Assembly (NCBI GenBank): GCA_002399265.1
Contig: DHDG01000039.1
Location: forward strand, 33,847-97,846
DNA: 64,000 nt
Origin: Firmicutes bacterium UBA4882
GTDB lineage: Bacteria > Bacillota > UBA4882
Reading direction: 5' to 3'
The notes beneath the pieces are model-generated. The model was not told the DNA's origin and did no database searches. It was given only the letters and a program-made list of their open reading frames with translations. The position numbers were made by a program, and so were the translations under genes. This document shows, in pieces, positions 44,144-64,000 of this stretch (positions are counted from its first letter, which is position 1; each line of letters starts with the position of its first letter).

Positions 44144-46126
44144 CTATTGATCCTTATTCTCGCTGACTGCGGTGACTGGCACAGGTTTTCCAGACGGATC
44201 CAGCAAGCGCAGAACGGCACTCTGCATGGCCAGCGGACCGTTACCGCCGGACTTTCTCCTGACCCAAACCGTGGCAAAATTCTCAAACTGTTTGCCTGTC
44301 GCTGTGGAACGGGTAGCTTCCAGCAACACCGCGTTCCCTTCCATGACAGGCTCTCTCAGCCAAGATAAAACTTTGCCGTCTTGCACCATAAACCCGCCTC
44401 TTTGAACAGCCAGCAGTTCTGTATCCGAATCAAAAGTTACCCGCAGCGCGAGCTGGGACGCTTCTGGCAGATTGACCAGGTCAATATCCACTTGGTACCA
44501 TCCTGGCCGTTCCGTGACCGGTGCAGAAACGCTCCTTATCTGACGAGGTAAATCAGGCCATTGAATCGCATTGGACCCAGAAATTACCTTGTTTTCATTA
44601 CATCCCGTCAAGATCTTGAACCCGGTAGAACCTACCCCACCCGAAGAAACAACGGACCAGCGTACCAACACTTCAGTGCCGGGGGCAAGTTTGCCAATAT
44701 AGCGGCGTGACGACTCTCCAGGGGCCAGTTCAATGCCGTTACCCGGAGCCAGCTCAGCCCAGGTATCAGTTGCAACATCTCCGCCATCATTGGAGACAAT
44801 CGCCTGCACTGCCACAGGATACGGTTCATATCGTCCCGTGACTGATTTAACCATAGGCGGGTCCAAGACCGTCAATCCCAGTTTGGGAGGGGCAATCAGC
44901 TTGATTTTGCGTTCGACGATGACCGGGTCACTTTCAAAGGCGTGACCGCGAACATTAATGGTTGCTGTCCCGGAGCCTACCGCTGTGAAAGTCCAAGCGG
45001 CTTGACGCGTTTCGCCCGGCTTTAGTGACCCAATATCTACTTTAATGGGGTTCAAAAGCCGCAATGAATTGGGAACGTCAATAGTCAGTGATACGTCACG
45101 TGCTACACCTTCACCGCGGTTTTCCAGATAGGCTAATACAATGTACTGCTCGGTAGTTCCCGACTGAACAGACGCCGGCGCGGTGACACCCAGTGTCAAC
45201 TCGCCCTTAGAAATGGTGACGCCACCCAGGCCATAATATGTTACCCGTGACAGAGCGGCTCCGGGAGGTAAATCCGTTGCATCCCACATTAGAGCTACGG
45301 CACTATCATATTCAAATTCACCAACTCTGGTAAAGTCTCTGCCCGCAATCAAGACGGGGTTCCATGGCTGATCCGCAAAGGTGCCCCAGTTGGAAAAGAA
45401 AAGACGATCAGGGGTGGTCAGCTCACCGCCGGCAAGTGTCCCCTGGGCGATGACTTTGGGCTCTTCCAGAGAATCAAAAGCCTGCCAGTATGACTGGATA
45501 GTTGAGCCCTGCGCGCCATAATCCGTAAGGATCTGTTTCTCGCCCATACGGAACGGAGCACCGTCATTTTCCCCAAGCATGGCGTCAATGCAAACCCGCA
45601 AACCGACTGAATGGTAGACTTGTCCTCTGTTCACCATGGTATACGCAATTCTGGCGGTATCCGGCAACCCGGTAGTTGGCCCGTCAACAATCGAGATGTA
45701 TTGCGTTACTTCCAGATCACCATAGCGCCACGCCGTGACAATTGCCCCGTCGCGCACTTCCGGTTTTTGAATCATCAGGCCGGTGGCCAACCCCTCGCCG
45801 GCACGCTTTGATACCGGACCGCCAAACGCGAACAATAAGCCGTTCATATTAATCGTGGTATAAGAGGTCCAGGGAAGAGGGCGGCCATAAATCAAAGGCT
45901 GGTTATCGTCGTCATCACGTTCAGGATCTCCGCCTGTTACATCAACCGCAAAACGGCCGCGCCCATCCGCGGTATTATTGACAAAAACCTTGATATATTC
46001 GTTTTCAATTGTCACCAAGGACTGGTCTTCCGCAGAAACCAGCGCACCCAATAAAAAGGCGACCGCAATTACGGCTGTCCAAAGCAGGGTAAATGAAGTA
46101 TACTTCTTCGCGTGTCTCATTCTCAT
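44144..46126 (-). CDS. Large secreted protein (660 aa, signal peptide, beta-rich; no recognisable catalytic motif), translationally coupled to tonB
   Basis: The ATG overlaps the tonB TGA (ATGA). The N-terminus is signal-peptide-like (KKYTSFTLLWTAVIAVAFLLGALVSA). The protein does not look like a TonB-dependent receptor (no plug, no C-terminal aromatic residue). Confidence 0.6.
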   Translation of the reverse strand: MRMRHAKKYTSFTLLWTAVIAVAFLLGALVSAEDQSLVTIENEYIKVFVNNTADGRGRFAVDVTGGDPERDDDDNQPLIYGRPLPWTSYTTINMNGLLFAFGGPVSKRAGEGLATGLMIQKPEVRDGAIVTAWRYGDLEVTQYISIVDGPTTGLPDTARIAYTMVNRGQVYHSVGLRVCIDAMLGENDGAPFRMGEKQILTDYGAQGSTIQSYWQAFDSLEEPKVIAQGTLAGGELTTPDRLFFSNWGTFADQPWNPVLIAGRDFTRVGEFEYDSAVALMWDATDLPPGAALSRVTYYGLGGVTISKGELTLGVTAPASVQSGTTEQYIVLAYLENRGEGVARDVSLTIDVPNSLRLLNPIKVDIGSLKPGETRQAAWTFTAVGSGTATINVRGHAFESDPVIVERKIKLIAPPKLGLTVLDPPMVKSVTGRYEPYPVAVQAIVSNDGGDVATDTWAELAPGNGIELAPGESSRRYIGKLAPGTEVLVRWSVVSSGGVGSTGFKILTGCNENKVISGSNAIQWPDLPRQIRSVSAPVTERPGWYQVDIDLVNLPEASQLALRVTFDSDTELLAVQRGGFMVQDGKVLSWLREPVMEGNAVLLEATRSTATGKQFENFATVWVRRKSGGNGPLAMQSAVLRLLDPSGKPVPVTAVSENKDQ

Positions 46127-46869
46127 GGCTGCGCTTCGCTCCTTTCCCACTGCTCGCTGCCCTGAAAAACAACTTTGACTTCGCCGCTGCGGAAAATGAG
46201 GGCGATCTTTATTTTCACAGGGAATGCCGGACGCGTATATTGCCATGCCTCTTTCAGAGCACGCAGTGAATAGGAATCCAGCCTTTGATCACCGGAAGCT
46301 GATAGCAGTACCACCTGAATCTCACCTTCCGGAGTCAACCTGACCTCTGTCAATACTTCTCCTTCTGAGCCTTCGTTCTGAGCATTTTTAGGATAAGTCA
46401 CCGGTTGACTGAGAACAAAGCCTTCCCCACTGCCGAGTCCCAGTCCCTTGTTTCCGCCTTGCGATGCACCGTTATTGCCGGCGCCCGATCCAGGCGAGCC
46501 AGGCGATGAATCAGACGGCACCGGCGGCACTGTGGAGCTATCTTGGGGCAATGTTTTGATCGGTTCATTAGTCTTGGGCTGCTGGGCGGTTTTTATTGGC
46601 GGGGATTCCTTTGGAGGTGGTTCTTTTTGCTGCGGCCGTTGTTGCTGTTCTTGAGCAGCTTCATTGACATTAATCTGCACAGCAGCAGTTTGCTCGGCGC
46701 GGCCGTCAGAAATCGTTGGACCCAGTTCGACAAAGCCGACCTCCAAAACTTCCATGCCGTTGCCTGCGGAAAGTCCTCCGCCAGGTACTGACGCCAACAG
46801 CAATAAGACTACATGCAGGATCAGTGATATGGTCCAGGAAATACCTTTACGCCAACCTGCGCTCATCAA
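46123..46869 (-). CDS. tonB: TonB-like energy transducer (TM anchor, Pro-rich spacer, TonB C-terminal domain)
   Basis: The architecture and the C-terminal domain pattern fit TonB. The gene follows exbD with a 4-nt overlap. Confidence 0.7.
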   Translation of the reverse strand: MMSAGWRKGISWTISLILHVVLLLLASVPGGGLSAGNGMEVLEVGFVELGPTISDGRAEQTAAVQINVNEAAQEQQQRPQQKEPPPKESPPIKTAQQPKTNEPIKTLPQDSSTVPPVPSDSSPGSPGSGAGNNGASQGGNKGLGLGSGEGFVLSQPVTYPKNAQNEGSEGEVLTEVRLTPEGEIQVVLLSASGDQRLDSYSLRALKEAWQYTRPAFPVKIKIALIFRSGEVKVVFQGSEQWERSEAQP

Positions 46870-47294
46870 TCAATCACCCCGTCATCGGAGGGACCTTGAT
46901 CCACGCGGCGTACACCCAGCGCAGGTCTTTCTGCTCCTCCCTCCCTAATCAGGTCCAGAGCGGCCACCAGGTCTTCGTATGCCACTTTGCGATCCGGATA
47001 CAAGACTACTTGCATCTGCGGGTTATCGATCAATGATTGCGTAACCCGCGCGGAGACTTCCGCAGCAGGAATCCGCAGACCTTCGATGAAATATTGCCCC
47101 TCGGTATCAAGCGCCACAACCAATTGCTCAATCTCAGCGACCGGGGCAGTGCTTGAGTCTGGAAGAGAAACCGGAATGGAAGCTGCTCCATTATCAAAAG
47201 TACCATAGATCACGAAAAAGAAGACCAGCATTACCATTACATCGATCAGAGGTACAATGTCAACCCTGGCTTTACGCTTCCAGTATCGAGCCAT
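46866..47294 (-). CDS. exbD: Biopolymer transport protein ExbD/TolR
   Basis: The N-terminus IVPLIDVMVMLVFFF is typical, and the size matches. Confidence 0.85.
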   Translation of the reverse strand: MARYWKRKARVDIVPLIDVMVMLVFFFVIYGTFDNGAASIPVSLPDSSTAPVAEIEQLVVALDTEGQYFIEGLRIPAAEVSARVTQSLIDNPQMQVVLYPDRKVAYEDLVAALDLIREGGAERPALGVRRVDQGPSDDGVID

Positions 47295-47910
47295 GGTTAC
47301 CCCTCCGATCTTTTAACATTGCCGAGAAATCAATTGTCTCACGTTCCAGCATCTCGGCGACGGATTCAGCGCGATGCACAAAATAGTTCATGGCCACCAG
47401 TGTAGGAATCGCAATAATTAATCCTGATGCAGTAGTAATCAGCGCTTCAGCAATACCCAAGCCAACCGATTCCATCCTGGCCATCGCCGAGGCTGCGCCA
47501 AGCAAGCGGAAAGTATTGAGAATGCCAGTAACAGTACCCAACAGTCCCAGAAGGGGCGCTGCCGTTACGATTGTGTCCAGAATGGAGAGCCCCGAAAATA
47601 ACTTTTTTCTTTCCAGACTGGCGGCCGCTTGCATTTCAAGCTCAGCATTTTCAGGATTTGCCGCTGCCAGGCCATTTGATAAAACCCGCATTACTGGACC
47701 GTCCGAATCGTTAAACAGTAGAACCGCTTCATTGGTAGCACCGGCGGCAATCAGCTTCCGGGCTGCTCTGAGACGATCCGATAATCCATTTTCCGTTTTG
47801 CGCAGCCGGACAAAAAAGATGATCCTTTCTACTATCACCGCCAGAGCCGTGACAGAACACAGCAACAGAGGATACATAACGGGCCCGCCTTTGGAAATTA
47901 TTGTGAACAT
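47272..47910 (-). CDS. exbB: MotA/TolQ/ExbB proton-channel protein
   Basis: Three TM helices and the conserved C-terminal helix region are present. RBS AAGGAGGA lies 7 nt upstream. Confidence 0.85.
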   Translation of the reverse strand: MFTIISKGGPVMYPLLLCSVTALAVIVERIIFFVRLRKTENGLSDRLRAARKLIAAGATNEAVLLFNDSDGPVMRVLSNGLAAANPENAELEMQAAASLERKKLFSGLSILDTIVTAAPLLGLLGTVTGILNTFRLLGAASAMARMESVGLGIAEALITTASGLIIAIPTLVAMNYFVHRAESVAEMLERETIDFSAMLKDRRGNHGSILEA

Positions 47911-48075
47911 AGAAATTCCTCCTTACTGTTTTAGGGTCTTTTCACTGGCGCACACATCTAAAAAGCAATCCATTTCCTGAATCCTTTTCACAAACGCACT
48001 TCTTTTTATTTCTTTTCCAGGGACTCCTATTCCTGCCCAGAAAATATTTAAGAAGATATGCAAAAACTGGAAACA

Positions 48076-48110
48076 CCAAAAAGGCTATCCGATGCTGAAT
48101 AGCCTTTTTG
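48076..48110. terminator. Bidirectional rho-independent terminator between deoC and exbB
   Basis: The stem aaaaaggctat/atagccttttt has flanking A/T runs on both strands. Confidence 0.6.
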
Positions 48111-48155
48111 CACACATGCCTGGACGCGCTGCAGTGTGCAGCGCCATGTCCGAAA

Positions 48156-48839
48156 CTAATATGAACTCTGCCCAGCCGATCCAGTGACGACCGCGACACC
48201 GGCACTCAGACCGAGACGACTGGCACCGGCTTCCACCATTCGCAACGCCGTTTCGCGATCTCTGATTCCGCCGGAGGCCTTCACGCCAATCTCTGAACCC
48301 ACCATGGCCCGCATCAGCTTCACATCTTCAACGGTGGCACCACCGCGACTGAACCCAGTTGATGTCTTGACGAAATTGGCACCAGCTTCCACTGCGATTT
48401 TGCAGGCGGTTTTCTTCTCTTCATCAGTTAATAATGCGGTTTCAATAATCACCTTAACCAAACGTCCGCCGGACGCATCCACAACGGCGGCGATATCGCG
48501 GTGCACTTCCTGATAAAGCCCAGATTTCAGTGCGCCAATTCGTATCACCATATCAAGCTCATCGGCTCCCATGGCAGCTGCATCTCTAGCTTCGGCGGCT
48601 TTGGCAAAAGCAGACGTAGCCCCCAGGGGAAATCCAATAACAGTACAGACTTTGACCGGCGATCCAGCCAGTTCCTGCTTAGCCAGCGGTACAAAGACCG
48701 GATTCACGCAAACCGAACAGAACTGATATTCCCGTGCTTCCTGACAGAGCTTCCGGATGTCTGCAGGCGTAGCCTCCGGTTTTAAAAGAGTATGATCAAT
48801 TATGCCAGCCAGTTCTTTGTCAAAATAACTATTTGCCAT
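48156..48839 (-). CDS. deoC: Deoxyribose-phosphate aldolase
   Basis: Begins [24 protein letters not shown]. The Schiff-base lysine context is present. A strong internal RBS AAGGAGG lies 8 nt upstream of the ATG at 48839. Confidence 0.85.
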
Positions 48840-49445
48840 TGGCAGTTCCTCCTTTTTGCATCGCTGCATAATATTCAGTGCCAGTTGTACAGCAGGTCCG
48901 ACACCTGCAATGCCAATAATTGACCCGATTCCTACCGGACCCCCCAGGATATATCCCAGCACGGCTGCAAAGACGTCCAATAGTATCCGCACTAACCCAG
49001 GCTTAATTTTCAATTTTTCGCTGATCCCGACCATAGCGAGTTCAATGGGACCCTCGCCGAGATTACCGCTGATATAGATTGCTGAGCCAAAGCCGATCGC
49101 AAAAACCGCAATCACGATAAAAAGGATTTGCAGATGAATGATACCGCCAACCTCAGGTAATATTCCCAGCAGACAGTCCAGTATCAGGCCTACCAAAAAA
49201 AAGTTGGCCAGTGTGGCAAGCCCCGGCTTTCTCTTCAGAATCAGCAAACAAAAGACAATCAACAGAAGACCAACAATTTGAGAGGCTCTCCCGGGAGTAA
49301 TCCCTGCCGCCTTAGACAGTCCCAGAGTCAGGATTGTCCAAGGATCAACTCCCAATTCCGCCCTGACATATAACGCGATGCCAAATCCAATTAGAGCAAT
49401 ACCGACTAAAACGGTTAGCCCGCGCCAAAAGCAATTTTTTAGCAG
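48156..49445 (-). CDS. YczE-like (4-5 TM) membrane domain read through in-frame into deoC with no intervening stop; possible natural fusion or lost stop
   Basis: The track ORF is continuous from the membrane domain into DeoC. The only plausible start downstream of the purD stop is a CTG (49445) after AAAGGAG, which makes the start uncertain. Confidence 0.4.
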
Positions 49446-49461
49446 TTGAGGAGACTCCTTT

Positions 49462-50763
49462 CTAACGGGCAATATCTTTGCGATAGACCATGCCGTCGAA
49501 ATGAACGTGTGCGAGGCCTTGATACGCCAAGTCAGCCGCCTGCGCCACGCCAGCGTCGGATTGCGCCACCACATTCAGAACTCTTCCGCCAGCGGTTACC
49601 AGACCATCAGGACTGTCGGCCGTGCCAGCGTGAAAGATCTGACACCCCAATGCTTCCGCTTCCGACAGGCCTGTGATAATTTTACCGCTTCGATACTTTC
49701 CCGGATAACCTTGGGACGCCGCAACCACACATACAGATGATCTATTTTCCCATTGCAGCGCTTTTCCTGCAAGCTTTTTCATGACAGCCGCCCATAAAAT
49801 TTCCGCCAGATCCGTCTGCAGCAGAGGCAGCAAGGCTTGTGTTTCTGGATCACCAAAACGAGCATTAAATTCGACAACTTTAGGTCCATCTCCTGTCAGC
49901 ATTAACCCGGCATAGAGCAGACCTGTGAACGGCCGTCCCATTTCCGCCAAGGTTTTCAGAACTGGATCAATAATTGAGTTCTTCACCAACTCTGCCAAAT
50001 TGTCCGGCGCATCAGCAACTGGGGCAAACGCGCCCATCCCTCCGGTATTGGCACCGGTATTCCCTTCGCCAATTGCTTTATGATCACGTGCCGGAATCAT
50101 GATTACCGAATCAGTGCCACTGCAGACTGCAAAAACAGAAGCTTCTTTGCCTGCCATAAACTCTTCAATTAAGACACAGTTATCCCCGGAAGATTGTGCC
50201 TTGGACGATTGCAGCCCGCCAGGATGCTCTTCGCAACATTGTGGCAAGAATTCGCAGATGGTCTCCTCAGCTTCGCTTAGGCTATGACAGATCCGCACCC
50301 CTTTTCCGGCAGCCAAGTTGTTCATCTTAAGCACTACAGGAAAATTGGCCGAAGAAAGGGAGCGCAAACCCGTTTTTCTATCGTGAACCTCCTGATAAGT
50401 GGCAGTCGGCACTTTCGCCTTGCGCATTACCTGCTTGGCGAAGACTTTACTGGTCTCGATTTCAGCGGCGGCTGCGGATGGACCAAAGGCAGGAATACCA
50501 GCTCTGGTGAGCATGTCAGACAGACCGGCCGCCAAATATATTTCCGGACCGATTACAACTAAATCGGGCCGTGCATTGACAGCCCAATCATAGATCGCGC
50601 CGGCACTCAAGTCACCAGGCCGAACATTTTCGGCGTATCTGGCTGTCCCGGGATTGCCCGGTGCGCAATATAGCTTTTTTACCAATGGACTGCGGGATAA
50701 CTTCCAACAGAGAGCATCCTCTCTGGCTCCGCTTCCGACAATTAGAATTTTCATTGTGCTCAT
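49462..50763 (-). CDS. purD: Phosphoribosylamine-glycine ligase
   Basis: The ATP-grasp motifs are present, with full-length PurD similarity. Confidence 0.9.
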
Positions 50764-50832
50764 GCTATGCTACCTCCTGCTGATGGGCAATCATGCTGCC
50801 CGGTAATATCACGCCCGTCTCTCCAGTAATCT

Positions 50833-52476
<1,644 letters not shown>

Positions 52477-52501
52477 GTGATGTCCCTCCTAATCCATCTC
52501 C

Positions 52502-53107
52502 CTAATCCAAGATGCGCACTTTACGGCCTTCAATTTGCAGCCGTCCTTGCGCAAACAGACTGACTGCCAAAGGAAACAGTCGGTGTTCGACCTGCAGCAC
52601 CCGGGCAGCCAGATTATCCTCGTCATCATCTGGAAGAACCGGAACCGCCTCCTGCAAAATAACCGGACCGCTGTCGATTCCGCCATCCACAAAGTGCACA
52701 GTACACCCGCTAATCTTGGCACCGTAGCGCAGTACATCCCGATGCGGATGGGCACCGGGAAACGCAGGCAGCAAAGCAGGATGAATGTTCATGATTTTTC
52801 CCTGATAGCGCTCCAGAAAATGTCCTCTCAACAAATACATAAAACCCGCCGTCAAGACCAGATCCGGATTGTAAGGCGCGATCAGTTCCGCCATGGCATC
52901 ACCATATAAGTCCGGATTGGAATCCGGCTTTCTGGATATTATCGCGACCGGAATATTGTTTTCTTTGGCATACAATAGGCCCGGAACTTCTGGAGCACTA
53001 CTAACAACGGCCACGATGCTGCCGTCGATTTGCCCCGCTGCAATGGCGTCGATAATCGCTTTCAGGTTGCTGCCTCTGCCTGATATCAAGACTACTATGC
53101 GAATCAA
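52502..53107 (-). CDS. purN: Phosphoribosylglycinamide formyltransferase
   Basis: The N-terminus MIRIVVLISGRGSNL and the formyltransferase His/Asp motifs are present. Confidence 0.9.
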   Translation of the reverse strand: MIRIVVLISGRGSNLKAIIDAIAAGQIDGSIVAVVSSAPEVPGLLYAKENNIPVAIISRKPDSNPDLYGDAMAELIAPYNPDLVLTAGFMYLLRGHFLERYQGKIMNIHPALLPAFPGAHPHRDVLRYGAKISGCTVHFVDGGIDSGPVILQEAVPVLPDDDEDNLAARVLQVEHRLFPLAVSLFAQGRLQIEGRKVRILD

Positions 53108-53111
53108 ACAA

Positions 53112-54134
53112 TCACTTCCTATAGGTCACTCCCGGAAGATCGGTAATCTCACCGACTACCCAGGCGTTGATTCCCGCTTCTGCCAGGAATGAGACCGCCT
53201 TCACGGCCTGTTTCTCCGGCACAACAGCGACCATTCCCAGACCCATATTAAATGTGCGGAACATTTCCGCCTCGTCTACGCCAGCGGTATTAGCCAAAAA
53301 TCCGAAAATTGGGGGTACTGGCCAAGAGGACAAATTAAAGACCGCCCCGTTACCCTCCGGCAGAATTCTGGGCACATTTTCGGTTAGGCCGCCGCCGGTA
53401 ATATGAGCCAATCCGCGAACCTCCACCTCTTTGATCAGACCCAAAACAGGTTTGACATAAATCTGAGTCGGCGTAAGCAGTACTTCTCCCAGAGGTTTAC
53501 GGAAACCAGCGACATAGTCCTCATAGGACAGCCGATGGTCTTTCATGATCTTGCGTACCAATGAAAAGCCATTACTATGTACACCGGTGGAAGCCATACC
53601 GATTATGGCGTCCCCTTTTTGGATAGAACGGCCGTCAATGATCTGATCATGTTCCACCACGCCGACAGAAAAGCCAGCAATGTCGCATGAGCCAGCCTCC
53701 ATATGACCGGGGTGTTCGGCAGTCTCTCCGCCAATCAGCGAACAGCCTGCCTGACGGCAACCTTCCGCCACGCCCGCGATCACGGCCGCCCCAACATTGA
53801 CGTCCAGTTTGCCGGTCACGAAATAGTCCAGAAAGAAGAGCGGTTCCGCTCCCACCACCACCAAGTCATTGACACACATTGCTACCGCGTCTATACCAAT
53901 CGTATCATGCTTATCCATAAACTGGGATATCATTACTTTAGTGCCGGCACCGTCTGTTGAGGAAACCAGCACCGGGCGCCGATAACCGCCAGGTAGGTCA
54001 CACAAAGCTCCAAAGCCGCCAATGCTGGAGAGTACTTCTGGCCTGCGGGTTGAGGCGGTGTAAGGCGCGATTCTGCGCACAAATTCATTTCCGGCATCAA
54101 TGTTGACACCTGAATCCCGGTAAGTTAAAGACAT
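53112..54134 (-). CDS. purM: Phosphoribosylformylglycinamidine cyclo-ligase (AIR synthetase)
   Basis: A PurM-like N-domain and C-domain are present. The gene overlaps the purF stop by 10 nt. Confidence 0.9.
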   Translation of the reverse strand: MSLTYRDSGVNIDAGNEFVRRIAPYTASTRRPEVLSSIGGFGALCDLPGGYRRPVLVSSTDGAGTKVMISQFMDKHDTIGIDAVAMCVNDLVVVGAEPLFFLDYFVTGKLDVNVGAAVIAGVAEGCRQAGCSLIGGETAEHPGHMEAGSCDIAGFSVGVVEHDQIIDGRSIQKGDAIIGMASTGVHSNGFSLVRKIMKDHRLSYEDYVAGFRKPLGEVLLTPTQIYVKPVLGLIKEVEVRGLAHITGGGLTENVPRILPEGNGAVFNLSSWPVPPIFGFLANTAGVDEAEMFRTFNMGLGMVAVVPEKQAVKAVSFLAEAGINAWVVGEITDLPGVTYRK

Positions 54135-55612
54135 GCTTGCTCCTCCTCCAGAATGTGCTTGCTTCCGCAGTCGCAGCCCCGCGGTATGCCAAATGGATAT
54201 TCTCCGTTAAAGCAGGCTAGACAAAGTCCGTCCGGCAGACCGATCGATTGCTGCAAGCCTTCAATCGTCTGGAAATGCAGTGAATCTGCACCAATAGAGC
54301 GGCGCATCTCATCCACCGAACAAGTAGCGGCAATCAGTTCACGGCTAGCCGAAATATCAATTCCGTAAAAGCAAGGGTATTTAAGGGGCGGTGAACTGAT
54401 AAACATGTGCACCTCTTTTGCTCCAGCCTCATGCAACATTTTGACCAAGAGCTTACTGGTCGTGCCTCTGACAATCGAATCGTCGATGATGACAATCCGT
54501 TTGCCTCTTAAGATCTGGCTGATCGGATGCAGCTTCAGGTTAACCCCCATGTTGCGCTCCGCCTGAAGCGGCCTAATAAAGGTTCTTCCCACATAACGAT
54601 TCACTACCAGCGCGGTATCAAGCGGTAATCCCGATTGTTCGGCGTACCCGATCGCTGTGGAAAAACCGCTCTCTGGAACTGGTACTACCAAATCGGCGTC
54701 AATCTCACTGACCCGCGCTAGTTGGCGTCCCATTTCCTTCCTGGTTTCGTGAACCAGTCGTCCCTCAATGACACTGTCCGCTCTGGAAAAATAGACGAAC
54801 TCCATAGCGCACAGAGCCCGTTTAGTCGGTGGCAACACGCGCTGCGAGCGTATACCATCCGGAGACAAAATCACCATTTCCCCGGGGTCGATATCACGCA
54901 AGACTTCTCCACCAATAGAACTGATCGCGCTCGATTCAGAAGCCACGACATAGCCTTCCGGCACGATCCCGAGGGACAGGGGGCGATTGCCGCCACCGTC
55001 CCTGACAGCGTAAACAGTATTACCGTGCAGAACGACCAGCGAAAAACTACCTTTTAATTTGGACACCGTTTTGCGGATCGCTGATTCGATCGATTCCGTA
55101 CTATATCTGGCAATTAAATTTAAGATTACTTCTGTGTCAGAAGTAGTTTGAAATACTGAACCGCCCTGCGCCAGTTCGTCGCAGAGGGCGGCAGTATTGA
55201 TCAAATTCCCATTATGAGCGACCGCCAGCATGCCCTTCAGACAACGTGCCACGATCGGCTGTGCGTTCACTACTGAGCTGGTGCCGGTCGTTGAGTAACG
55301 CACATGCCCGATTGCTGAGGTTCCAATCAAACCGTCGATAATCGTTTCGTCAAAGACATGCCGGACCATGCCCATGTTTTTATGACAGATCATTTTATGA
55401 CCGTCCGACACGGTGATTCCGGCACTCTCTTGACCGCGGTGCTGCAGTGCATATAACCCCATATAAGACATGCGCGCTGCAGCGCAACCTGAACGCCCGG
55501 CCACCCCAAACACGCCGCATTCCTCGTGCAGACGATCCTCAAAGATGTCTTCTGAGCCTTCCACTGCGCCTGCTATTGGGCCTTCATGCAGTTGGCAATA
55601 CTGTTTTTCCAT
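54125..55612 (-). CDS. purF: Amidophosphoribosyltransferase (with ~30-aa propeptide before the catalytic Cys)
   Basis: The motif ECGVFGV, a PRTase motif, and [4Fe-4S] Cys residues are present. The ATG at 55612 overlaps the purL 3' end by 40 nt. Confidence 0.9.
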
Positions 55613-58572
55613 CTCTGCTCCATCTCCCTTACGGGTACGTCGACACAGGGGGACGGTTCTTCTGTGCTATTTTGATCGCAACAACAAGAGCAAGCGTACT
55701 TTCCCTGTTTAGCTGGCTCGATTGTGATTTGCAGATTCATACCGCCCACTGTTCCCAGTTTAGTAGCACTAATGCCATAATGTCCGGCAAGCTCCACGAT
55801 TGCCGCCGACGACTCCGCCGGAGCTGAGATCAAAATCCGGCTTTGGCTCTCACCGAATAACAGCGCATCGGGCCTGATCAAATTGGAATTAGAATCGGTA
55901 GCCGGCAGGCGCAGTGTGGCACCTTTACCGCCGGCAATACAGCATTCTGCGGCTGCAACCGCCAGACCACCCTCGCTGAGATCATGCGCCGAAACAATGA
56001 GGCTCCGGTCAATGAGCTCCAGAATCAGACTAATCAGCTGCTTCTCTTTCTTAAGATCAAGTTCTGGAACTCGGCCAGCAACCGTTTGGGCACAGACCTT
56101 CAAATACTCGCTGCCGCCAAGCTCTTCCCTGGTCTCGCCCAGCAGAATGACACTGTGGTCCTCTACTTTAAAGGCCATGTCGCATCTTTTGCTAATGTCG
56201 TTTATGAGCCCGAGCATGCCAATAATCGGCGACGGGTAGATCGGCTGGCCGTTGGTTTCGTTGTAAAAACTAACATTACCGCCGATCACCGGCGTTTCAA
56301 GTTCTCGGCAAGCGTCGGCAATCCCGTCAACCCCTCTGGCGAATTGCCAATAAACATCGGGCTTCTCCGGATTACCGTAGTTCAGCCCATCAGTGACTGC
56401 CACCGGTTTGGCACCTGTGCAAGCTACGTTCCGAGCGGCTTCCGCGACTGCAGCAGCTGCACCGGTATAGGGATCGAGATAGCAAAGACGCCCGTTACCA
56501 TCGATTGAAAACGCAATACCCTTTTGCGTATCTTTTACGCGCAAAACAGCAGCATCCGCACTGCCAGGGACGAGTACCGTATTATTTTGGATCATATGAT
56601 CGTATTGCCGATACACCCATTCTTTACTGGCTATGCCCGGAGACGCCAACAGCTTCAGCAGGCACGCATTAAAATCGGACGGCAAAGGGACTGCGTTCAT
56701 ATCATAGTTATTCAGCTCGTCAAGATAGGCGGGCTTTTCACATTCAGTAACGTACTTTGGAGCACCTTGCGTTGACAATGACCAGGCCGGTACTTCTGCC
56801 ACCACTTGGGGTCCTTCATAAAGTCGCAGCATGCCATCGTCGGTTACGGTGCCGACAATATTACAATCCAAACCCCAGCGCTCATAAATGGCGGTGACCG
56901 CTTCCTCGCAACCCGGCTTGGGCACGAGCAGCATCCGTTCCTGAGACTCCGAAAGCATCATTTCATAGGGTGTGATACCTTCTTCGCGGCGTGGCACTTT
57001 CAGCAAATCCATTTCAATGCCGGTATCGGCTCTGGCAGCCATTTCACAAGCTGAGCTGGTCAATCCGGCTGCTCCCATATCCTGAACCCCAACAAGCAAT
57101 TTTGCTTTGATTACTTCCAGAGTAGCTTCAATGAGCAGTTTCTCGGTAAAGGGGTCGCCAACCTGAACGGCGGGCCTTTTTTCTTCGGAGTTTTCATTGA
57201 GCTCACCAGAAGCAAAGCTGGCACCTAAAATGCCATCGCGTCCAGTATTGGCACCAGCCACCATTACAGCATTGCCGACGCCACTAGCGGAAGCGGTGAT
57301 AATATCGTCTGTTTTAGCCAATCCAACACACATCACGTTGACAAGAGGATTACCATAATAACAAGAATCAAACTGAATCTCGCCGCCAATAGTTGGCACG
57401 CCGACACAATTACCATATCCGGCGATGCCAGACACTACGCCCGAAAATAAGTAACGGGTGCGGTCATCCGTCAGTGGACTAAAGCGCAGCGAATTCAGAC
57501 AAGCAACCGGCCGGGCGCCCATAGTGAAGATATCGCGCAGAATGCCGCCAATGCCGGTAGCTGCTCCCTGATAAGGCTCGATCGCCGAAGGATGATTATG
57601 GCTTTCTACTTTCATCACGACCGCCATACCATCGCCAATGTCGATAATGCCGGCGTTTTCACCCGGTCCCTGCAGAATATGGGGGCCTTCTGTAGGAAAG
57701 CGCGAGAATAAAGCCCGGGAATGTTTGTAGGCACAATGTTCAGACCACAGAGCGGCGAACATACCTAATTCAGTAAGATTCGGTTCACGACCAAGCTGGC
57801 TGATGATTCTGTCGTATTCGGCAGAAGTAAGGCCAAGCTCAACTGCTTTTGCTCTCATGCTCATGCTGTCCACCTGCCGCTTCCTGATTAGTGACTTGAT
57901 GATCGACTTAAAAATGTAATTGCCGTCTTCAGAGCCGAGAATGCTTTCCCCGGCCCGCTCTGGATGCGGCATCAGTCCAAAAACGTTGCCGCTTTCATTA
58001 ACAATACCCGCGATATTGGCGACGGAACCATTTGGATTATGCTCGGGAAGCACCGTTCCATTAGAACCGCAATAGCTTAGAACAATACCGCCATAACCGC
58101 GCAAGCGCTCCAAGCCTGTCTCATCAATATAGAAATTGCCGTCCATGTGGGCAATGGGGATGCTCAAAACTTGATCAGGAGTACAGGTGTTCGTAAAAAT
58201 GGTTTCGTTATTTTCAACCTTTAAAAATGTATTATTGCAAATAAAACTGATTCCCTCATTGCGCCGCAGCGCGCCGGGGAGTAAGCCAGACTCCGTCAGA
58301 ATTTGAAAGCCGTTACAGATGCCAATCACTGGACCACCAGATTCCGCAAAACGTCGGACAGCTTCCATGATTGGGGAAAAACGGGCAATCGCGCCTGGAC
58401 GCAAATAATCGCCATAAGAAAAGCCTCCGGGCAGAACGATCGCATCGATATCATTGAACGCCTGCTCACCGTGCCAAATATATTCGGTCTCTTGCTGCAG
58501 CACATCTTCCAGCGCGTGACGGCAATCATCGTCGCAGTTCGATCCCGGGAAAACAACTATTCCAAAGCGCAT
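55573..58572 (-). CDS. purQL: Fused PurQ-PurL: N-terminal glutamine amidotransferase (aa 1-236) joined in-frame to FGAM synthase II (aa 237-999)
   Basis: The PurQ catalytic region (GICNGFQIL...HPER) is followed, with no stop, by a canonical PurL N-terminus [18 protein letters not shown]...[10 protein letters not shown]. An internal ATG at 57864 is preceded by AGGTGG 5 nt upstream. The PurL C-terminus matches the expected ...ELxRAWKxxIxxxLK ending. Confidence 0.85.
55642..55666. repeat. 25-nt repeat copy 2 (GACACAGGGGGACGGTTCTTCTGTG), inside the purL 3' coding region, 30 nt upstream of the purF ATG
   Basis: 24/25 identity with 60511..60535. It contains an imperfect inverted repeat. It encodes ...TEEPSPCVD... 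in PurL. Confidence 0.7.
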
Positions 58573-58573
58573 C

Positions 58574-58834
58574 TTAGTTCTGCACCTCCGTCAGAGTACA
58601 GCTGAAAGTCTCAATAACCGGGTTAGACAACACCCGCCGTGCAATTTCTTCTAATGTCTTTTGGGCCTCTTGTTGGGTTTTGGCATTGATGCTTAGCTCA
58701 AAATACCTTCCCGAACGAACATTAGCAGCACAATCGTAGCCCAGTTTGGCTAATGCACCTTCCACTGCCTTCCCCTGCGGATCAAGAATGCCTTCCTTCG
58801 GCAAAACCCGCACTACTCCCTTAAACATCGTCAA
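58574..58834 (-). CDS. purS: FGAM synthase PurS subunit
   Basis: An 86-aa PurS fold sequence ([19 protein letters not shown]). The gene ends 1 nt before the purQL start. Confidence 0.85.
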
Positions 58835-58863
58835 TCATCCTTTCAGCTGCAATTTTAATTATC

Positions 58864-60261
58864 CTAATTCCGATGATAGAGTTGTTCTTCCCAACAAGCG
58901 CAGACTGTTTCAGTCTTTTGAGACGCAATCCCAAGATAATCAAGCGGATTTTCCAGAGCATCACTGCCTCGTTTGCTGATGGTGCCCAGATACTTTGTCA
59001 AAGTCGGCTCCTGTTGGACGATCTCTTTTAGGGATTGGCCTTTTTGATCAGCTTCCAGTGTCATTTTTCGGACGGCTTCATGGGCATTGGGATGACCGGC
59101 GGCCGCCAAGCAAATATAGAGCGGTTCTGCGACAAAGCGTTCGGAAGATTGCTGCGCATTGGCGCGCATCTGGTCAGAATCGACCGTCATTTTCCGGAGC
59201 ACCCGCGTGGTGCGGTCCAGTGCCAAAATGAATCCAGTGACCAGCTCAGGCGCAAACCGGCCGGAAGCCGAATTGGTTAGATCACGCTGATGTTCCGAAA
59301 TTTGATCCATGTAAGCCGTCATGATGCGTGGGGCAAAGCTTTTCCAGAGACTTTTGATATGTTCGAAATTCCAGGGATTTCTCTTATGGGGCATGGTCGA
59401 AGATCCAACTTGCGTAGCAGAAAAGGCCTCGCTGATCTCAGCAATTTCGCTGCGCTGCAGATTACGGAAATCATCCGCTAAATTGGCCAGCACGCCAAAA
59501 GCAGAGACAATGCCATGCAGGTAGTCGAGCAAAAACTCGGGCGCCACAATTTGCGTACTATGCGTGGCTGGCTGCAGGCCAAGTTTTGCCAGGACATTCT
59601 TTTCGAATGCCTCAGGATTATCAATAATGAGCGCGGAAGCGTTATAAGCGCCTACCGCTCCGGCCATTTTTCCTTTCAGCTGTGCAACACCATGATCCAA
59701 ATAAGTAATGCGTTCGCCGAGCCTGGCAACGTATTCCGCAACAGCAAAGCCAAACGTGATGGGTACAGCGTGTTGTCCATGGGTTCTTCCAATTTGAACT
59801 GTGTCTTTTTCGCGTCTGGCCAAGTCGATGAGCTCTTGCTCCAATGCCAGCAACATAGGCCGCAGCAGCTCATGGTAAGCGTCGCGGAACCGCAGTGCAT
59901 TCGCCGTATCCAGAATGTCGACAGAAGTGGCTGTTAAGTGAATATATGGTCGGACGGACTCACTGACCCGCTGGGCAATACAATTCGTCAGAGCCCTGAT
60001 ATTATGATGCGTTCTTTCTTCTTCCTGGTAGACAGCGTCGGGATTAATCGCTGCACAAGCCTTCTCGATTTCGGCAGCAGTTCCGATTGGACAAATACCT
60101 GCTTCTTCTAACCCCTGCGCCAAGGCTGTTTCCACCCGGAGCTGGTAGTGGACGGCTGCATTTTCACTGAAGTAGCTGGACACCTTGTCCATTAACTCTT
60201 GGTTGGATTTATAGTAGCGGTGATCTAGAGGACTGATCTGATCAAATATGTCTCGTTTCAT
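58864..60261 (-). CDS. purB: Adenylosuccinate lyase
   Basis: The fumarate-lyase signature GSSTMPHKRNP is present, with full-length similarity. RBS GGGGAGG lies 7 nt upstream. Confidence 0.9.
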   Translation of the reverse strand: MKRDIFDQISPLDHRYYKSNQELMDKVSSYFSENAAVHYQLRVETALAQGLEEAGICPIGTAAEIEKACAAINPDAVYQEEERTHHNIRALTNCIAQRVSESVRPYIHLTATSVDILDTANALRFRDAYHELLRPMLLALEQELIDLARREKDTVQIGRTHGQHAVPITFGFAVAEYVARLGERITYLDHGVAQLKGKMAGAVGAYNASALIIDNPEAFEKNVLAKLGLQPATHSTQIVAPEFLLDYLHGIVSAFGVLANLADDFRNLQRSEIAEISEAFSATQVGSSTMPHKRNPWNFEHIKSLWKSFAPRIMTAYMDQISEHQRDLTNSASGRFAPELVTGFILALDRTTRVLRKMTVDSDQMRANAQQSSERFVAEPLYICLAAAGHPNAHEAVRKMTLEADQKGQSLKEIVQQEPTLTKYLGTISKRGSDALENPLDYLGIASQKTETVCACWEEQLYHRN

Positions 60262-60330
60262 TTGCGAACCTCCCCGCCTATTTTCCTATTCTCAATATGC
60301 TCCAAAAATCGGTGATTCAGCAAACGCTTT

Positions 60331-60369
60331 CAAAAAAATAAGCAGACAGAACCGGATAATTCTGTCCGC
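60331..60369 (-). terminator. Intrinsic terminator-like hairpin in the purB 5' leader (between promoter and RBS): candidate attenuator
   Basis: On the minus strand, a 10-bp stem gcggacagaa/uucugucugc with an 8-nt loop is followed by UUAUUUUUUUG. It lies ~40 nt downstream of the predicted +1. Confidence 0.5.
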
Positions 60370-60413
60370 CGGAGTCTATCACTTCGTGGCGTAGCGCGTG
60401 GCGTGACACCTAA

Positions 60414-60442
60414 ATTGTACAAGTACTGTTGTCGGTTGTCAA
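60414..60442 (-). promoter_or_regulatory. Sigma-A promoter upstream of purB (TTGACA-17-TACAAT)
   Basis: A perfect -35 and a near-perfect -10 with a 17-nt spacer on the minus strand. Confidence 0.6.
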
Positions 60443-60510
60443 TACAAGTTGTGTGACTTTTTTGTTAGGCGGGCAAAAATAGGATTTGGCGTCACAATAT
60501 TCTGACATTT

Positions 60511-60535
60511 GACACAGGGGGACGGTTCTCCTGTG
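60511..60535. repeat. 25-nt repeat copy 1 (GACACAGGGGGACGGTTCTCCTGTG) forming an 8-bp-stem hairpin, immediately after the purE stop
   Basis: The perfect inverted arms GACACAGG/CCTGTGTC (60511-18 / 60530-37) flank an 11-nt loop. It is 24/25 identical to 55642..55666. Confidence 0.7.
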
Positions 60536-60538
60536 TCC

Positions 60539-61039
60539 CTAATAATTGCGCCAGCCATTTTGCTGGAGGCGGTTGTCTTTATCTAAAACCTGTTGTACCA
60601 TGCGTGCTTTGTATGCTTTCATTTTTTCGCGCAATGCTGCGTCGGACAGGCTTAGTATTTGCACGGCCAGAATCCCGGCGTTACGGGCAGCCCCCACTCC
60701 TACGCAGGCAACCGGTATTCCTGATGGCATCTGCACCATGGAAAGCAATGAATCAAGTCCACTAAGGCTCGCACCCAGAATCGGTACCGCAATGACCGGC
60801 AACGTTGTTTCGGAGGCAATTACGCCCGCCAAATGGGCTGCACCGCCAGCTCCAGCGATAATTGCACCGAAACCCTCTGCAGCGGCGGCTTTGGCAAATG
60901 CAGTTGTCTGATCCGGAGTCCGATGCGCCGATAAAATGCGCATACAATATTCGACCCCAAACTCCTCCAGCACCTCGCCGGCCGCTTTCATGATCCCTAA
61001 ATCGGAGTCGCTGCCCATCATGATGGCAACTTTCTGCAT
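60539..61039 (-). CDS. purE: N5-carboxyaminoimidazole ribonucleotide mutase PurE
   Basis: The N-terminus MQKVAIMMGSDSDL and the PurE fold are present. RBS GAGGAGG lies 8 nt upstream. Confidence 0.9.
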   Translation of the reverse strand: MQKVAIMMGSDSDLGIMKAAGEVLEEFGVEYCMRILSAHRTPDQTTAFAKAAAAEGFGAIIAGAGGAAHLAGVIASETTLPVIAVPILGASLSGLDSLLSMVQMPSGIPVACVGVGAARNAGILAVQILSLSDAALREKMKAYKARMVQQVLDKDNRLQQNGWRNY

Positions 61040-61217
61040 TTTGCCAGCCTCCTCGCATCTAGATTTTTATTAAGTCGTATATCTTAATTTTAGCGTTTTA
61101 AAGCATAGTAACTAGACGCATGGGACACAACCTGCTGCCCACTGCTCAGCCCAGCACTTGCACAATAATAGGAGCAACCACTTTTTGTCGCGGCCGCTCC
61201 ATCCGAATGAAAAGTAA

Positions 61218-62510
61218 TCAGGCTTCTGCCTGCTTCTGCACGTGTTCTTTTTCTTTGTTCTTGCCAGTCAGCTGGAAGAGCAGGTTCAGGATCACCCCAG
61301 CCAATGTGGCGAACGCCATGGAACTAACCTGAATAACGTTGCCGAAGGCGTGCGCATTCAGTTTGGCACCGCCAATACCAAGAGTCAGTACTACAGACGA
61401 CAAGAGCAGGTTATGCTTGTCCGTATAATCGACGCCGGAAGAAACCAGCATTCTGAGCCCGGAAGCAGCAATAATACCGAACAACGCCATGCAGATCCCG
61501 CCCATAACAGGTTGCGGAATAGAGGAAATAAAGGCTTCAAATTTCCCGAAAACCGAAAGCAGAATGGCCAATACCGCTGCTCCGCCAGTCACCCAGACGC
61601 TGTATACTTTGGTGATTGCCATTACGCCGATGTTTTCGCCGTAAGTAGTATTAGGTGGTCCGCCAACAAGTCCCGCAAAAGAGGTGGCCAATCCGTCGCC
61701 AAGCAGCGTACGGTGCAGCCCTGGATTGGCTGTGAAATCTCTTCCGGTAACGCCACTGAGCGTCAGAATATCTCCGATATGCTCTGCCATTGTTACCAGA
61801 GCTACGGGAGCGATTCCAGCAATCGCAGGCAGGCTAAATTCCGGAAGTGTGAACTTCGGCACAGAGAACCAGACTGCTCCTTCTATGATCTTCAAATCAA
61901 CCAGTCCGGTAAGCAATCCCGTAAAATAACCGGCAGCAATTCCAAACAGGATCGGAATAACCCCTAAAAAACCCTTGAAGAAAACCGAGGCAATAATCGT
62001 CACTGCCAGTGTCACCAGCGCGGTAAATACGCCAGGATTTGATAATGCCGCCGTATCACTGTTAAGGACAGCCATTGATATCGCAGTCGGCGCCAGACCC
62101 ATCCCGATGACAATGATTACAGAACCGACTAGCACCGGCGGGAAAAACTTTTTAATCCACCCGGTACCAATTAAAGAGATGATTGCAGAAGCAAGGACAT
62201 AAATCAGTCCGGCAGCGATTGTTCCGCCTAATGCAGCAGGTATGCCGTACTGTTCTTTAGCGGCAATAATCGGACCGATGAAAGCAAATGAAGAGCCAAG
62301 ATAAGCCGGCACTTTTCCTTTCGTGCACACGATAAAAATCAGTGTGCCGAAGCCACTGGTAAACAGTGCGACTGCAGGACTCAGTCCGGTTAAAAAGGGC
62401 ACCAGCACAGTGGCACCAAACATAGCCAAAAGGTGCTGCAGGCTTAAGGCGATCCACTTGTGTGGCGCAGGGCGCTCATGAACCTCAATGGTCTTCTGCG
62501 ATGATTTCAT
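61218..62510 (-). CDS. pyrP: Uracil permease (NCS2 family, UraA/PyrP)
   Basis: The N-terminal motif ERPAPHKWIALSLQHLLAMFGATVLVP matches UraA. The ATG at 62510 is preceded by GGGAGG 7 nt upstream. The gene lies directly downstream of pyrR. Confidence 0.85.
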   Translation of the reverse strand: MKSSQKTIEVHERPAPHKWIALSLQHLLAMFGATVLVPFLTGLSPAVALFTSGFGTLIFIVCTKGKVPAYLGSSFAFIGPIIAAKEQYGIPAALGGTIAAGLIYVLASAIISLIGTGWIKKFFPPVLVGSVIIVIGMGLAPTAISMAVLNSDTAALSNPGVFTALVTLAVTIIASVFFKGFLGVIPILFGIAAGYFTGLLTGLVDLKIIEGAVWFSVPKFTLPEFSLPAIAGIAPVALVTMAEHIGDILTLSGVTGRDFTANPGLHRTLLGDGLATSFAGLVGGPPNTTYGENIGVMAITKVYSVWVTGGAAVLAILLSVFGKFEAFISSIPQPVMGGICMALFGIIAASGLRMLVSSGVDYTDKHNLLLSSVVLTLGIGGAKLNAHAFGNVIQVSSMAFATLAGVILNLLFQLTGKNKEKEHVQKQAEA

Positions 62511-62554
62511 CTTGCTTCCTCCCAGCATTATTATGGTATTGTTAATAAAACCGG

Positions 62555-63127
<573 letters not shown>

Positions 63128-63143
63128 TCAACCGTCACCTCAC

Positions 63144-63230
63144 AAAAAAGCCTTCCCCGGCTGCCGCCGCAAGAAGGTTTAACTCAAACACAGAGTTTAC
63201 TCTCCTTGCCGACCTCACGGGATCGTACTT
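63144..63230 (-). promoter_or_regulatory. PyrR-dependent transcription attenuator in the pyrR leader (PyrR-binding loop GAUCCCGUGAGGUC + terminator hairpin)
   Basis: On the minus strand, a motif matching the PyrR binding-loop consensus (UCC-G-GAGG) is followed by the stem ccuuc...gaagg plus CUUUUUUG, directly before the pyrR RBS. Confidence 0.6.
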
Positions 63231-63254
63231 AAAGGATTTGCGCTACACACTCTT

Positions 63255-63283
63255 ATTAAACATTAGGCAGATCATAAAGTCAA
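63255..63283 (-). promoter_or_regulatory. Sigma-A promoter for the pyrR operon (TTGACT-17-TTTAAT)
   Basis: Hexamers with a 17-nt spacer lie upstream of the attenuator. Confidence 0.5.
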
Positions 63284-63330
63284 CATTTTTATGGGCTCTC
63301 CAGGCCTTCCGGGCCCCCCTGATGTTCCTG

Positions 63331-63918
63331 TTACAGGCCTTCGCTATGCTCGCGGCCTTCTTGGCGCGCGGTGACCGGCCCGAATTCAGACAGAGGCCAC
63401 AGACGCCAAACCACCCGGCCCTGCATCTGCACCCGCGGAACAGAACCAATCGCCGGATCCCTGCTGTCCAAACTATGATCACGATTATCGCCCATCAGGA
63501 AATAACGGTCGGTAGGAACCAGCAACGGCTCAAGATTAGTCCAAGGTCCCATTATGCCATTAATATAGCTCTCCTGTTGCACAAGGCCGTTCACAGACAG
63601 CGTGCCACTGACAATCGCGATCTGGTCTCCCGGAAGTGCCACAACCCTTTTGATGAGAATCCCTTCTGCTGCAGCGCAGGTAAATCCGTATATTTCCCCT
63701 GGCTCAGGCTGATGCCAGATTCCGGACAGTTTTTCCGTGACCACAATGTCCCCGTCTGCCAGAGTCGGACGCATGGAATCGCCGGAGATGACAATAATTC
63801 TTCCGATAAAAAGTATGAAAACGCTGGCTACCACGGAGGCCAGCGCCAGCCATTCCAGCCATTCGCGCAAAAATGTTTTTTTCACAGCCAGACCACTCAA
63901 GACTGCCAGCCCCCTCAA
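63331..63918 (-). CDS. lepB: Signal peptidase I
   Basis: The SPase I boxes are present (GDSMRPTL, GDNRDHSLDSR). The start codon is uncertain: the TTG at 63918 and the GTG at 63885 both lack a good SD. Confidence 0.8.
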   Translation of the reverse strand: MRGLAVLSGLAVKKTFLREWLEWLALASVVASVFILFIGRIIVISGDSMRPTLADGDIVVTEKLSGIWHQPEPGEIYGFTCAAAEGILIKRVVALPGDQIAIVSGTLSVNGLVQQESYINGIMGPWTNLEPLLVPTDRYFLMGDNRDHSLDSRDPAIGSVPRVQMQGRVVWRLWPLSEFGPVTARQEGREHSEGL

Positions 63919-63927
63919 ACGAAAAGG

Positions 63928-63948
63928 AGGGCTGATTTAATCAGCCCT
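63928..63948 (-). other. Perfect 9-bp-stem hairpin (agggctgat-tta-atcagccct) overlapping the rplS stop codon, followed by a short U-run: leaky terminator or processing element between rplS and lepB
   Basis: A palindrome was read directly in the sequence. A weak U-tract (ccuuuucguuu) follows on the minus strand. Confidence 0.4.
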
Positions 63949-64000
63949 CTGAAACGTTGATGCCTTTACGGCGCTCAGTAATACGCGCAGCACGGCCGGA
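63941..64000 (-). CDS. rplS: 3' end of the ribosomal protein L19 gene (continues beyond the window)
   Basis: The minus-strand translation ...SGRAARITERRKGINVSEG* resembles the L19 C-terminus (GKAARIKERR). The rplS-lepB arrangement is common. Confidence 0.4.
   Translation of the reverse strand, partial: SGRAARITERRKGINVSEG

Follow-up and report, generated by a model that had tools for sequence, protein, structure and literature searches.

A two-base deletion in purQ as the probable origin of a PurQ-PurL fusion gene in Firmicutes bacterium UBA4882

The window analysed here is a stretch of 64,000 nucleotides from contig DHDG01000039.1 of Firmicutes bacterium UBA4882 (assembly GCA_002399265.1). 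On its minus strand, purQ and purL, which encode the glutaminase and the synthetase of formylglycinamide ribonucleotide (FGAR) amidotransferase, occupy one open reading frame (ORF) of 999 amino acids (55573..58572), with no in-frame stop in the ORF listing. Comparison with conspecific contigs revealed that the window lacks two bases of purQ, some 25 nt before the ATGA overlap with purL. The best overall explanation, which we consider likely to be correct, is that a real 2-bp deletion in purQ yields a PurQ-PurL fusion and that this is a young allele of one micro-clade. The elements of the fused gene are as follows.

57889..58572, minus strand: purQ-derived part, amino acids 1-228, a complete glutaminase fold (PurQ equivalog models and alignment to PDB 3D54)
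57888..57890, minus strand: site of the 2-bp deletion, CACT^AATC in the window and CACTAGAATC in other strains (alignments to contigs L081-L083 and L091-L100)
57865..57888, minus strand: eight frameshift-derived codons, IRKRQVDS, amino acids 229-236, now the linker (translation compared with the 237-aa PurQ of L081)
57870..57875, minus strand: retained purL Shine-Dalgarno (SD) sequence AGGTGG, now within the fused ORF and conserved in all strains and in an 85%-identical relative
57861..57864, minus strand: ATGA, in which the purL start ATG (M237, 57864-57862) overlaps the former purQ stop TGA (57863-57861), now out of frame
55573..57864, minus strand: purL part, amino acids 237-999 plus the stop codon, a complete small PurL (formylglycinamidine ribonucleotide (FGAM) synthetase)

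A preliminary description of this DNA, made without database searches, had read PurQ as continuing into PurL without a stop codon. This reading was borne out, as the 999-aa ORF gave full matches to both NCBIfam equivalog models. The PurQ model NF002957 matched amino acids 1-227 over model positions 1-219 of 222 (317.5 bits, cut-off 212), and the PurL model NF002290 matched amino acids 248-992 over positions 1-719 of 723 (1018.7 bits, cut-off 648). The models for large PurL (lgPurL) stayed far under their cut-offs (NF003672, 245 bits against 783; TIGR01735, 198 against 1123). Pfam assigned GATase_5, FGAR-AT_linker, two AIRS and two AIRS_C domains to the product. The glutaminase triad Cys86, His203 and Glu205 was intact, with the motifs GICNGF and MPHPER (positions read off the translation). 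Residues 6-211 of the 213 in T. maritima PurQ (PDB 3D54 chain D) aligned to amino acids 4-228, and residues 1-697 of PDB 3VIU aligned to amino acids 239-949, so that nothing is missing from the start of PurL.

Two features of the PurL part were observed in addition. About 20 residues, rich in Cys, are inserted in a variable C-terminal loop (amino acids ~955-978, window about 55640-55710); the insertion was found neither in the PurL of the 85% relative (P0002) nor in other PurL sequences, and confidence in the AlphaFold 2 (AF2) model is low there. At window position 57247, codon 442 of the fused ORF, the deletion micro-clade (except L098) has Asn (AAT) and other strains have Lys (AAG). This codon lies within the conserved GAxTGRDG motif of PurL, at a position with the alignment consensus Arg.

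The minus-strand sequence of the junction is AAGTCACTAATCAGGAAGCGGCAGGTGGACAGCATGAGCATGAGAGC, which reads in codons AAG TCA CTA ATC AGG AAG CGG CAG GTG GAC AGC ATG AGC ATG AGA. The SD sequence AGGTGG is separated by 5 nt from the first ATG, at 57864, as the preliminary description had noted, and a second ATG follows at 57858-57856. The ATGA overlap with its TGA out of frame, also described there, was found at 57863-57861. The lesion itself proved to be different from the proposed one: a 1-nt indel had been suggested to remove the purQ stop, whereas the actual change is 2 nt long and lies at 57888-57890, not at the stop codon. It converts CACTAGAATC to CACTAATC in codon 229 of purQ, and the lost pair can be read as AG or GA. 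When the junctions were aligned, the other contigs had CACTAGAATCAGG and the window CACTAATCAGG, that is, two bases fewer.

In the unfused contigs, the end of purQ and the start of purL share the ATGA tetranucleotide. Since this 4-nt overlap sets purL at +2 relative to purQ, the deletion moves purQ into the purL frame. The frame changes after Leu228, and the native PurQ tail ESGSGRWTA-stop is replaced by IRKRQVDS. The connection between the ends of the PurQ and PurL models thereby comprises 20 residues, eight of them new. On the relative L083, an 18-nt insertion between the first and the second ATG leaves the spacing from SD to first ATG unchanged, which favours the first ATG as the original start codon of purL.

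The closest database match to the PurL part was P0001, a 100% identical protein of 763 aa that is encoded as a separate PurL on L081 and L082. On these two European Nucleotide Archive (ENA) metagenome contigs, a separate purQ of 237 aa ends in the ATGA overlap. The 85%-identical relative L083 also kept both bases and separate genes, and the calls on L081-L083 were 237-238 aa for purQ and 763 and 754 aa for purL. Separate genes at an otherwise identical junction were thus present on no fewer than 12 distinct conspecific contigs and in the 85% relative. Most of the conspecific contigs, at 99.4-99.8% identity to the window, retain the two bases. A look-up of the exact PurS protein of the window returned ten conspecific contigs, eight with AG and separate genes and two with the deletion. 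The two carriers, L098 (ENA ERZ724028, NODE_188) and L100 (NCBI GCA_036789385.1, a 337-kb contig), each encode the 999-aa gene. The preliminary description had suggested a comparison with the junctions of close relatives; most conspecifics and the 85% relative are indeed unfused, but two other assemblies share the deletion.

Longer alignments gave the same picture. L107, the same contig as L100 with wider flanks, differed from the window by 1 mismatch and 0 gaps over 15,427 bp. Compared with L081/L082 and the longer L084/L085, the window was 99.4-99.6% identical over 8-18.5 kb, and the 2-bp gap was the sole gap within the aligned blocks, of which two were split by a 45-nt difference in the purE-purB spacer. 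In a cluster look-up, the 999-aa protein occurred once, on a 168,602-bp NCBI contig and with neither an NCBI protein accession nor a name, and variants of the 237-aa PurQ occurred on 19, 7 and 6 contigs. An exact look-up of contigs encoding the 999-aa product had nothing on record, although the cluster look-up holds the product once. Two pattern scans of metagenome contigs for the junction returned no match, the wild-type sequence included, and hence provide no census of the alleles.

Single-nucleotide polymorphisms (SNPs) were then compared over 4.2 kb. The window, L100, L098, L096 and L095 formed one tight clade with 0-4 SNPs, and the deletion was seen only within this clade, of which L095 and L096 carry AG. 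L096 was SNP-identical to L100, the 2-bp indel being the sole difference. We infer that the allele is very young and segregates beside the wild type. Very probably the deletion truly exists, as an allele of very recent origin side by side with the wild-type sequence.

The purE-purB spacer (window 60511-60539, minus strand) also varies among these contigs. The window, L096, L098 and L100 are without a 45-nt segment, GGGACGGTTCTCCTGTGTCTTTCTCAGTGTCTTTGGGGACACAGG, that is present in other strains just past the purE stop, in a region that forms the inverted repeat GGACACAGG...CCTGTGTC. The short spacer marks the micro-clade of the deletion allele; the spacer region of L095 consists partly of Ns.

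An artefact was considered, in which the genome truly has AG, purQ and purL are separate, and assembly or polishing created the deletion. Such an origin would fit with the majority of unfused conspecific contigs, with the AG of L096 on an otherwise SNP-identical background, with a coverage of just 4.4x for L098 according to its record name and with the absence of an NCBI protein accession for the 999-aa protein, and the assemblies may have source samples in common. However, the identical 2-bp deletion is present in three assemblies with different record-naming styles (one ENA NODE_ contig and two NCBI metagenome-assembled genome (MAG) contigs), and there is no homopolymer or repeat in the context CACTAGAATC. 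No further indel was found in 15-18 kb of otherwise 99.4-99.99% identical sequence, which rules out a noisy long-read assembly. Because the same deletion is found in two other assemblies and is the sole indel in 15-18 kb, a one-off assembly error is unlikely, and we regard an artefact of any kind as improbable. The alternative raised earlier, an indel or assembly error, was therefore right in that an indel is the cause, but the one-off error it allowed for is unlikely. The deletion is a strain-level and apparently segregating allele, neither a lineage trait nor a one-off assembly error.

Programmed recoding, by frameshifting or readthrough at the purQ/purL junction, was also considered, given that the genes overlap and that an SD-like element lies inside the ORF upstream of the junction. 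It was rejected, as the ORF of the window is continuous by plain translation, with no in-frame stop and no frameshift needed, and the relatives have an ordinary ATGA stop/start overlap. No slippery heptamer was present at the junction, and the chance that recoding is involved is negligible.

Fusions of the same kind exist elsewhere. A full PurQ and a full small PurL in one ORF, in a purS-purQL-purF context, were confirmed on contigs for P0042 (1041 aa, on three contigs), P0051 (1046 aa, RefSeq WP_083485949.1, Alicyclobacillus ferrooxydans) and P0006 (1024 aa). Pairs from different species were 74% (P0042/P0051), 75.5% (P0006/P0007) and 73% (P0008/P0018) identical. Since the ORF stays open through divergent linkers at 73-75% identity, these are selected fusions, and their conservation between species indicates that the PurQ-PurL architecture is viable. 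From one model end to the other, their linkers mostly comprise some 50-115 aa; those of the P0006-P0018 group are rich in P, A and R. In the P0008-P0018 group, one locus with a fused ORF (L020) comes from a Solirubrobacterales MAG, and its ORF is truncated. P0206, a fusion of 957 aa, has a linker only ~11 residues longer than that of the window.

A search of 1.84 billion representatives returned as long top matches mostly intein-containing PurL. P0206 was the only PurQ-PurL fusion among them; a PurC-PurL fusion and a long PurL without additional Pfam domains were also present. Because clustering at 50% hides other fusions, this search gives no measure of how common the architecture is. The literature search found no paper describing a PurQ-PurL fusion with an N-terminal glutaminase.

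Several candidates were not counted as fusions. Junction-spanning single tblastn segments from Rokubacteria, Solirubrobacterales, Cohnella and others were rejected because one stop separates the genes in at least 16 loci (L001-L007, L009-L013, L015, L021, L022 and L025); only L020 had one ORF. P0036, P0037 and P0070 were not used as precedents, as the C-terminal region of their PurQ is scrambled, probably by frameshift read-through. As a separate observation, purQ and purL lie in the same frame with exactly one stop between them, which tblastn reads through, in Rokubacteria/Methylomirabilota, Solirubrobacterales, Cohnella, Verrucomicrobia and Nitrospirota. Such pairs are a single point mutation short of fusion; alternatively, stop-codon readthrough may occur in them. 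Among the long PurL proteins, P0146, P0158, P0187, P0234 and P0144 (~890-1260 aa) contain an intein (Intein_splicing) within the first AIRS domain, three of them with LAGLIDADG. In the 90%-identity clusters of Alicyclobacillus (P0042/P0141/P0142 and P0051/P0138/P0139), ~1040-aa proteins named PurL stand beside calls of 765-827 aa, which suggests that start sites are annotated inconsistently for naturally fused purQ-purL genes.

These precedents could be taken to mean that the window carries an established, selected fusion typical of its lineage, as in Alicyclobacillus, where between-species conservation is found. Most strains, the closest sister contigs L095/L096 and the 85% relative L083 are nevertheless unfused and have the ATGA overlap intact, which makes this very improbable. 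The earlier suggestion of a natural fusion in the making stands in the sense of a young strain-level allele and falls in the sense of an established lineage trait, as most strains are unfused.

Several points weigh against a real and functional fusion allele. A systematic or recurrent sequencing or consensus error is possible, since the allele was judged from assembled sequence, and related samples, or even the same runs, may underlie the three assemblies. Furthermore, L098, a carrier of the deletion, shows ancestral alleles at three SNP sites, and L096 pairs AG with derived ones. This four-gamete conflict among the clade contigs calls for recombination, recurrence or a mosaic metagenome consensus, and is most simply explained by mosaic consensus contigs of coexisting strains. 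The 20-residue connection is short in comparison with the roughly 50-115 residues of the species-conserved natural fusions. Finally, the clade is too young to carry any signal of selection.

If the allele is real, the 2-bp deletion in codon 229 would shift the purQ frame by +2. Ribosomes would then pass from PurQ residue 228 through IRKRQVDS to Met1 of PurL, because the ATGA overlap places purL in exactly the shifted frame. Initiation at purQ would give the fused protein, with a predicted mass of 107.1 kDa in comparison with 25.7 and 81.4 kDa for the separate proteins. Since the SD sequence and the ATG are retained, dual translation is plausible, and the internal start may also supply some free 81-kDa PurL. 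Coupling of termination and reinitiation at the ATGA would be lost, and free PurQ would no longer be made.

The fused protein was modelled with AF2 from an alignment that included natural PurQ-PurL fusions; the output comprised overall confidence without coordinates. The mean predicted local distance difference test (pLDDT) score was 88.9 and the predicted template modelling (pTM) score 0.78. Low confidence was confined to residues 53-57 and the linker (pLDDT <50 at 233-236), and the C-terminal helix of PurQ (215-234) was predicted to extend into the new residues. The model is compatible with a folded two-domain protein, and correct docking of the glutaminase is beyond its reach.

Given a real allele, we lean slightly towards a fused enzyme that still assembles with the PurS dimer as a glutamine-dependent FGAM synthase. 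An impaired coupling, which would leave the strain dependent on the ammonia-dependent activity of PurL or on salvage, is less probable and still a serious prospect. The fuller proposal of a functional new fused amidotransferase, with a domain order permuted relative to large PurL, an eight-residue new linker and both fused and free PurL being made, is a tentative one.

A real mutation with loss of function must be weighed here as well, although we consider it rather unlikely. The glutaminase would be tethered too tightly, or its C-terminal helix perturbed, and thereby uncoupled from PurL. In B. subtilis, small PurL alone has ammonia-dependent activity. The strain would live on ammonia-dependent PurL (the PurL domain, or PurL initiated internally) or would salvage purines in a rich habitat such as a fermentation, and the allele would be a first step of decay rather than the birth of an enzyme. 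The rarity and extreme youth of the allele, a linker far shorter than in the species-conserved fusions, the loss of the native PurQ tail and the labelling of one conspecific contig as fermentation metagenome are consistent with this outcome. So is the position of the glutaminase C-terminal helix, which borders a cavity discussed for StPurL and TmPurQ under 'Regulation of the glutaminase domain' (PMC3815217), so that a perturbation there is conceivable. On the other hand, the PurQ fold is whole up to residue 211 of the 213 in T. maritima PurQ, PurL is whole, the AF2 model is confident overall, the other pur genes of the window are intact and a short linker is known from one fusion or more (P0206).

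The fused product was compared with the known forms of the enzyme. The literature distinguishes lgPurL, smPurL with PurQ and PurS, and mdPurL, and describes a PurS2-PurQ-PurL complex as well as a large PurL whose single chain carries the glutaminase at its C-terminus (PMC3261824, PMC3815217, PMC7124931). The domains of lgPurL follow the order PurS-like N-domain, linker, synthetase and C-terminal glutaminase (PMC3261824, PMC3815217). The three-subunit FGAR amidotransferase of T. maritima (PDB 3D54), Gram-positives and archaea has the same components in the same order, purS-purQ-purL; chains A and D of PDB 3D54 are direct homologues, and in this species the wild-type allele encodes a typical representative. 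The fused gene is put together from the parts of this enzyme and presumably acts in the same way. The deletion allele (window, L098 and L100) differs in having PurQ and PurL in one polypeptide with the eight frameshift-derived residues between them. The Salmonella-type lgPurL of Gram-negatives and eukaryotes (PDB 1T3T) likewise carries glutaminase and FGAM synthetase on one chain and performs the same chemistry, but it is ~1300 aa long with the glutaminase at the C-terminus, whereas in the window product the glutaminase is N-terminal and PurS is separate. The opposite domain order, pointed out in the preliminary description, is thus upheld by the models and the literature.

The Alicyclobacillus-type fusions share with the window the domain order (glutaminase N-terminal, small PurL C-terminal) and the purS-purQL-purF context. 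They are conserved across species-level divergence and their linkers are mostly ~50-115 aa, whereas the fusion of the window is polymorphic at the level of strains and its connection has 20 residues. Small PurL has further length variants, namely mdPurL (archaea without purS), PurC-PurL (P0274) and intein-containing PurL (P0146, P0158 and P0234); these have other partners or insertions, and none has PurQ at its N-terminus. These variants show that the PurL family tolerates fusions and insertions.

The genes adjoining the fused ORF are the following.

58574..58828, minus strand: purS, directly upstream of purQ, 84 aa according to the calls on related contigs (the upstream ORF is also given to 58834)
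54125..55612, minus strand: purF, the next gene of the operon, its called start overlapping the purL 3' end by 40 nt (ORF list)

PurS is a separate small protein (Pfam PurS; NF004630, 90.5 bits, cut-off 75), and an identical 84-aa product was indexed in 142-143 collection blocks. The overlap of purF with purL was called in the same way on related contigs. As called, the purF start (overlap 55573-55612) lies ~31 residues ahead of the conserved amidotransferase Cys (HEECGVFGV), and the true start may be further downstream. The cluster has the order purE, purB, purS, purQ-L, purF, purM, purN, purH and purD, and in the ORF list the remaining pur genes of the window are all intact.

Upstream of purB, on the minus strand, a near-consensus sigma-70-type promoter was found (TTGACA-17-TACAAT, 11 of 12 matches, window 60442-60414). 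A 13-bp hairpin followed by a T-run (60370-60341, minus strand) lies between this promoter and purB-purS-purQL, and the purB leader has the appearance of a transcription-attenuation leader. No riboswitch, purine or other, was found with Rfam in 48000-64000 or, at permissive thresholds, in 60200-61300. Just downstream of the pur cluster, at ~46121-47908 on the minus strand, are ExbB/MotA, ExbD and TonB_C genes, the calls being transferred from the near-identical contig L084. In a genome labelled Firmicutes/Bacillota, these genes hint at an outer-membrane (diderm) envelope.

Fusions of genes for enzyme subunits are usually met long after their formation. The allele described here is an incipient case of an architecture that is known elsewhere in sequence data and is undescribed in the papers found. 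Because the alleles differ by two bases, with 0-4 SNPs over 4 kb, the mutation that led from one to the other can be named: a frameshift that placed purQ in the frame of the downstream gene overlapping it. Other lineages offer a comparison in older fusions of this architecture that are conserved between species. If the fused enzyme is inactive, the allele would represent a tolerated frameshift and an annotation pitfall. If it is active, the allele pair would constitute a clean natural test of what fusion does at its origin to stoichiometry, ammonia channelling and the lost translational coupling, and of the minimum linker length compatible with the PurQ-PurL interface. Since fused and unfused alleles coexist in natural populations, the fitness effect of a functional fusion would be directly measurable at its origin.

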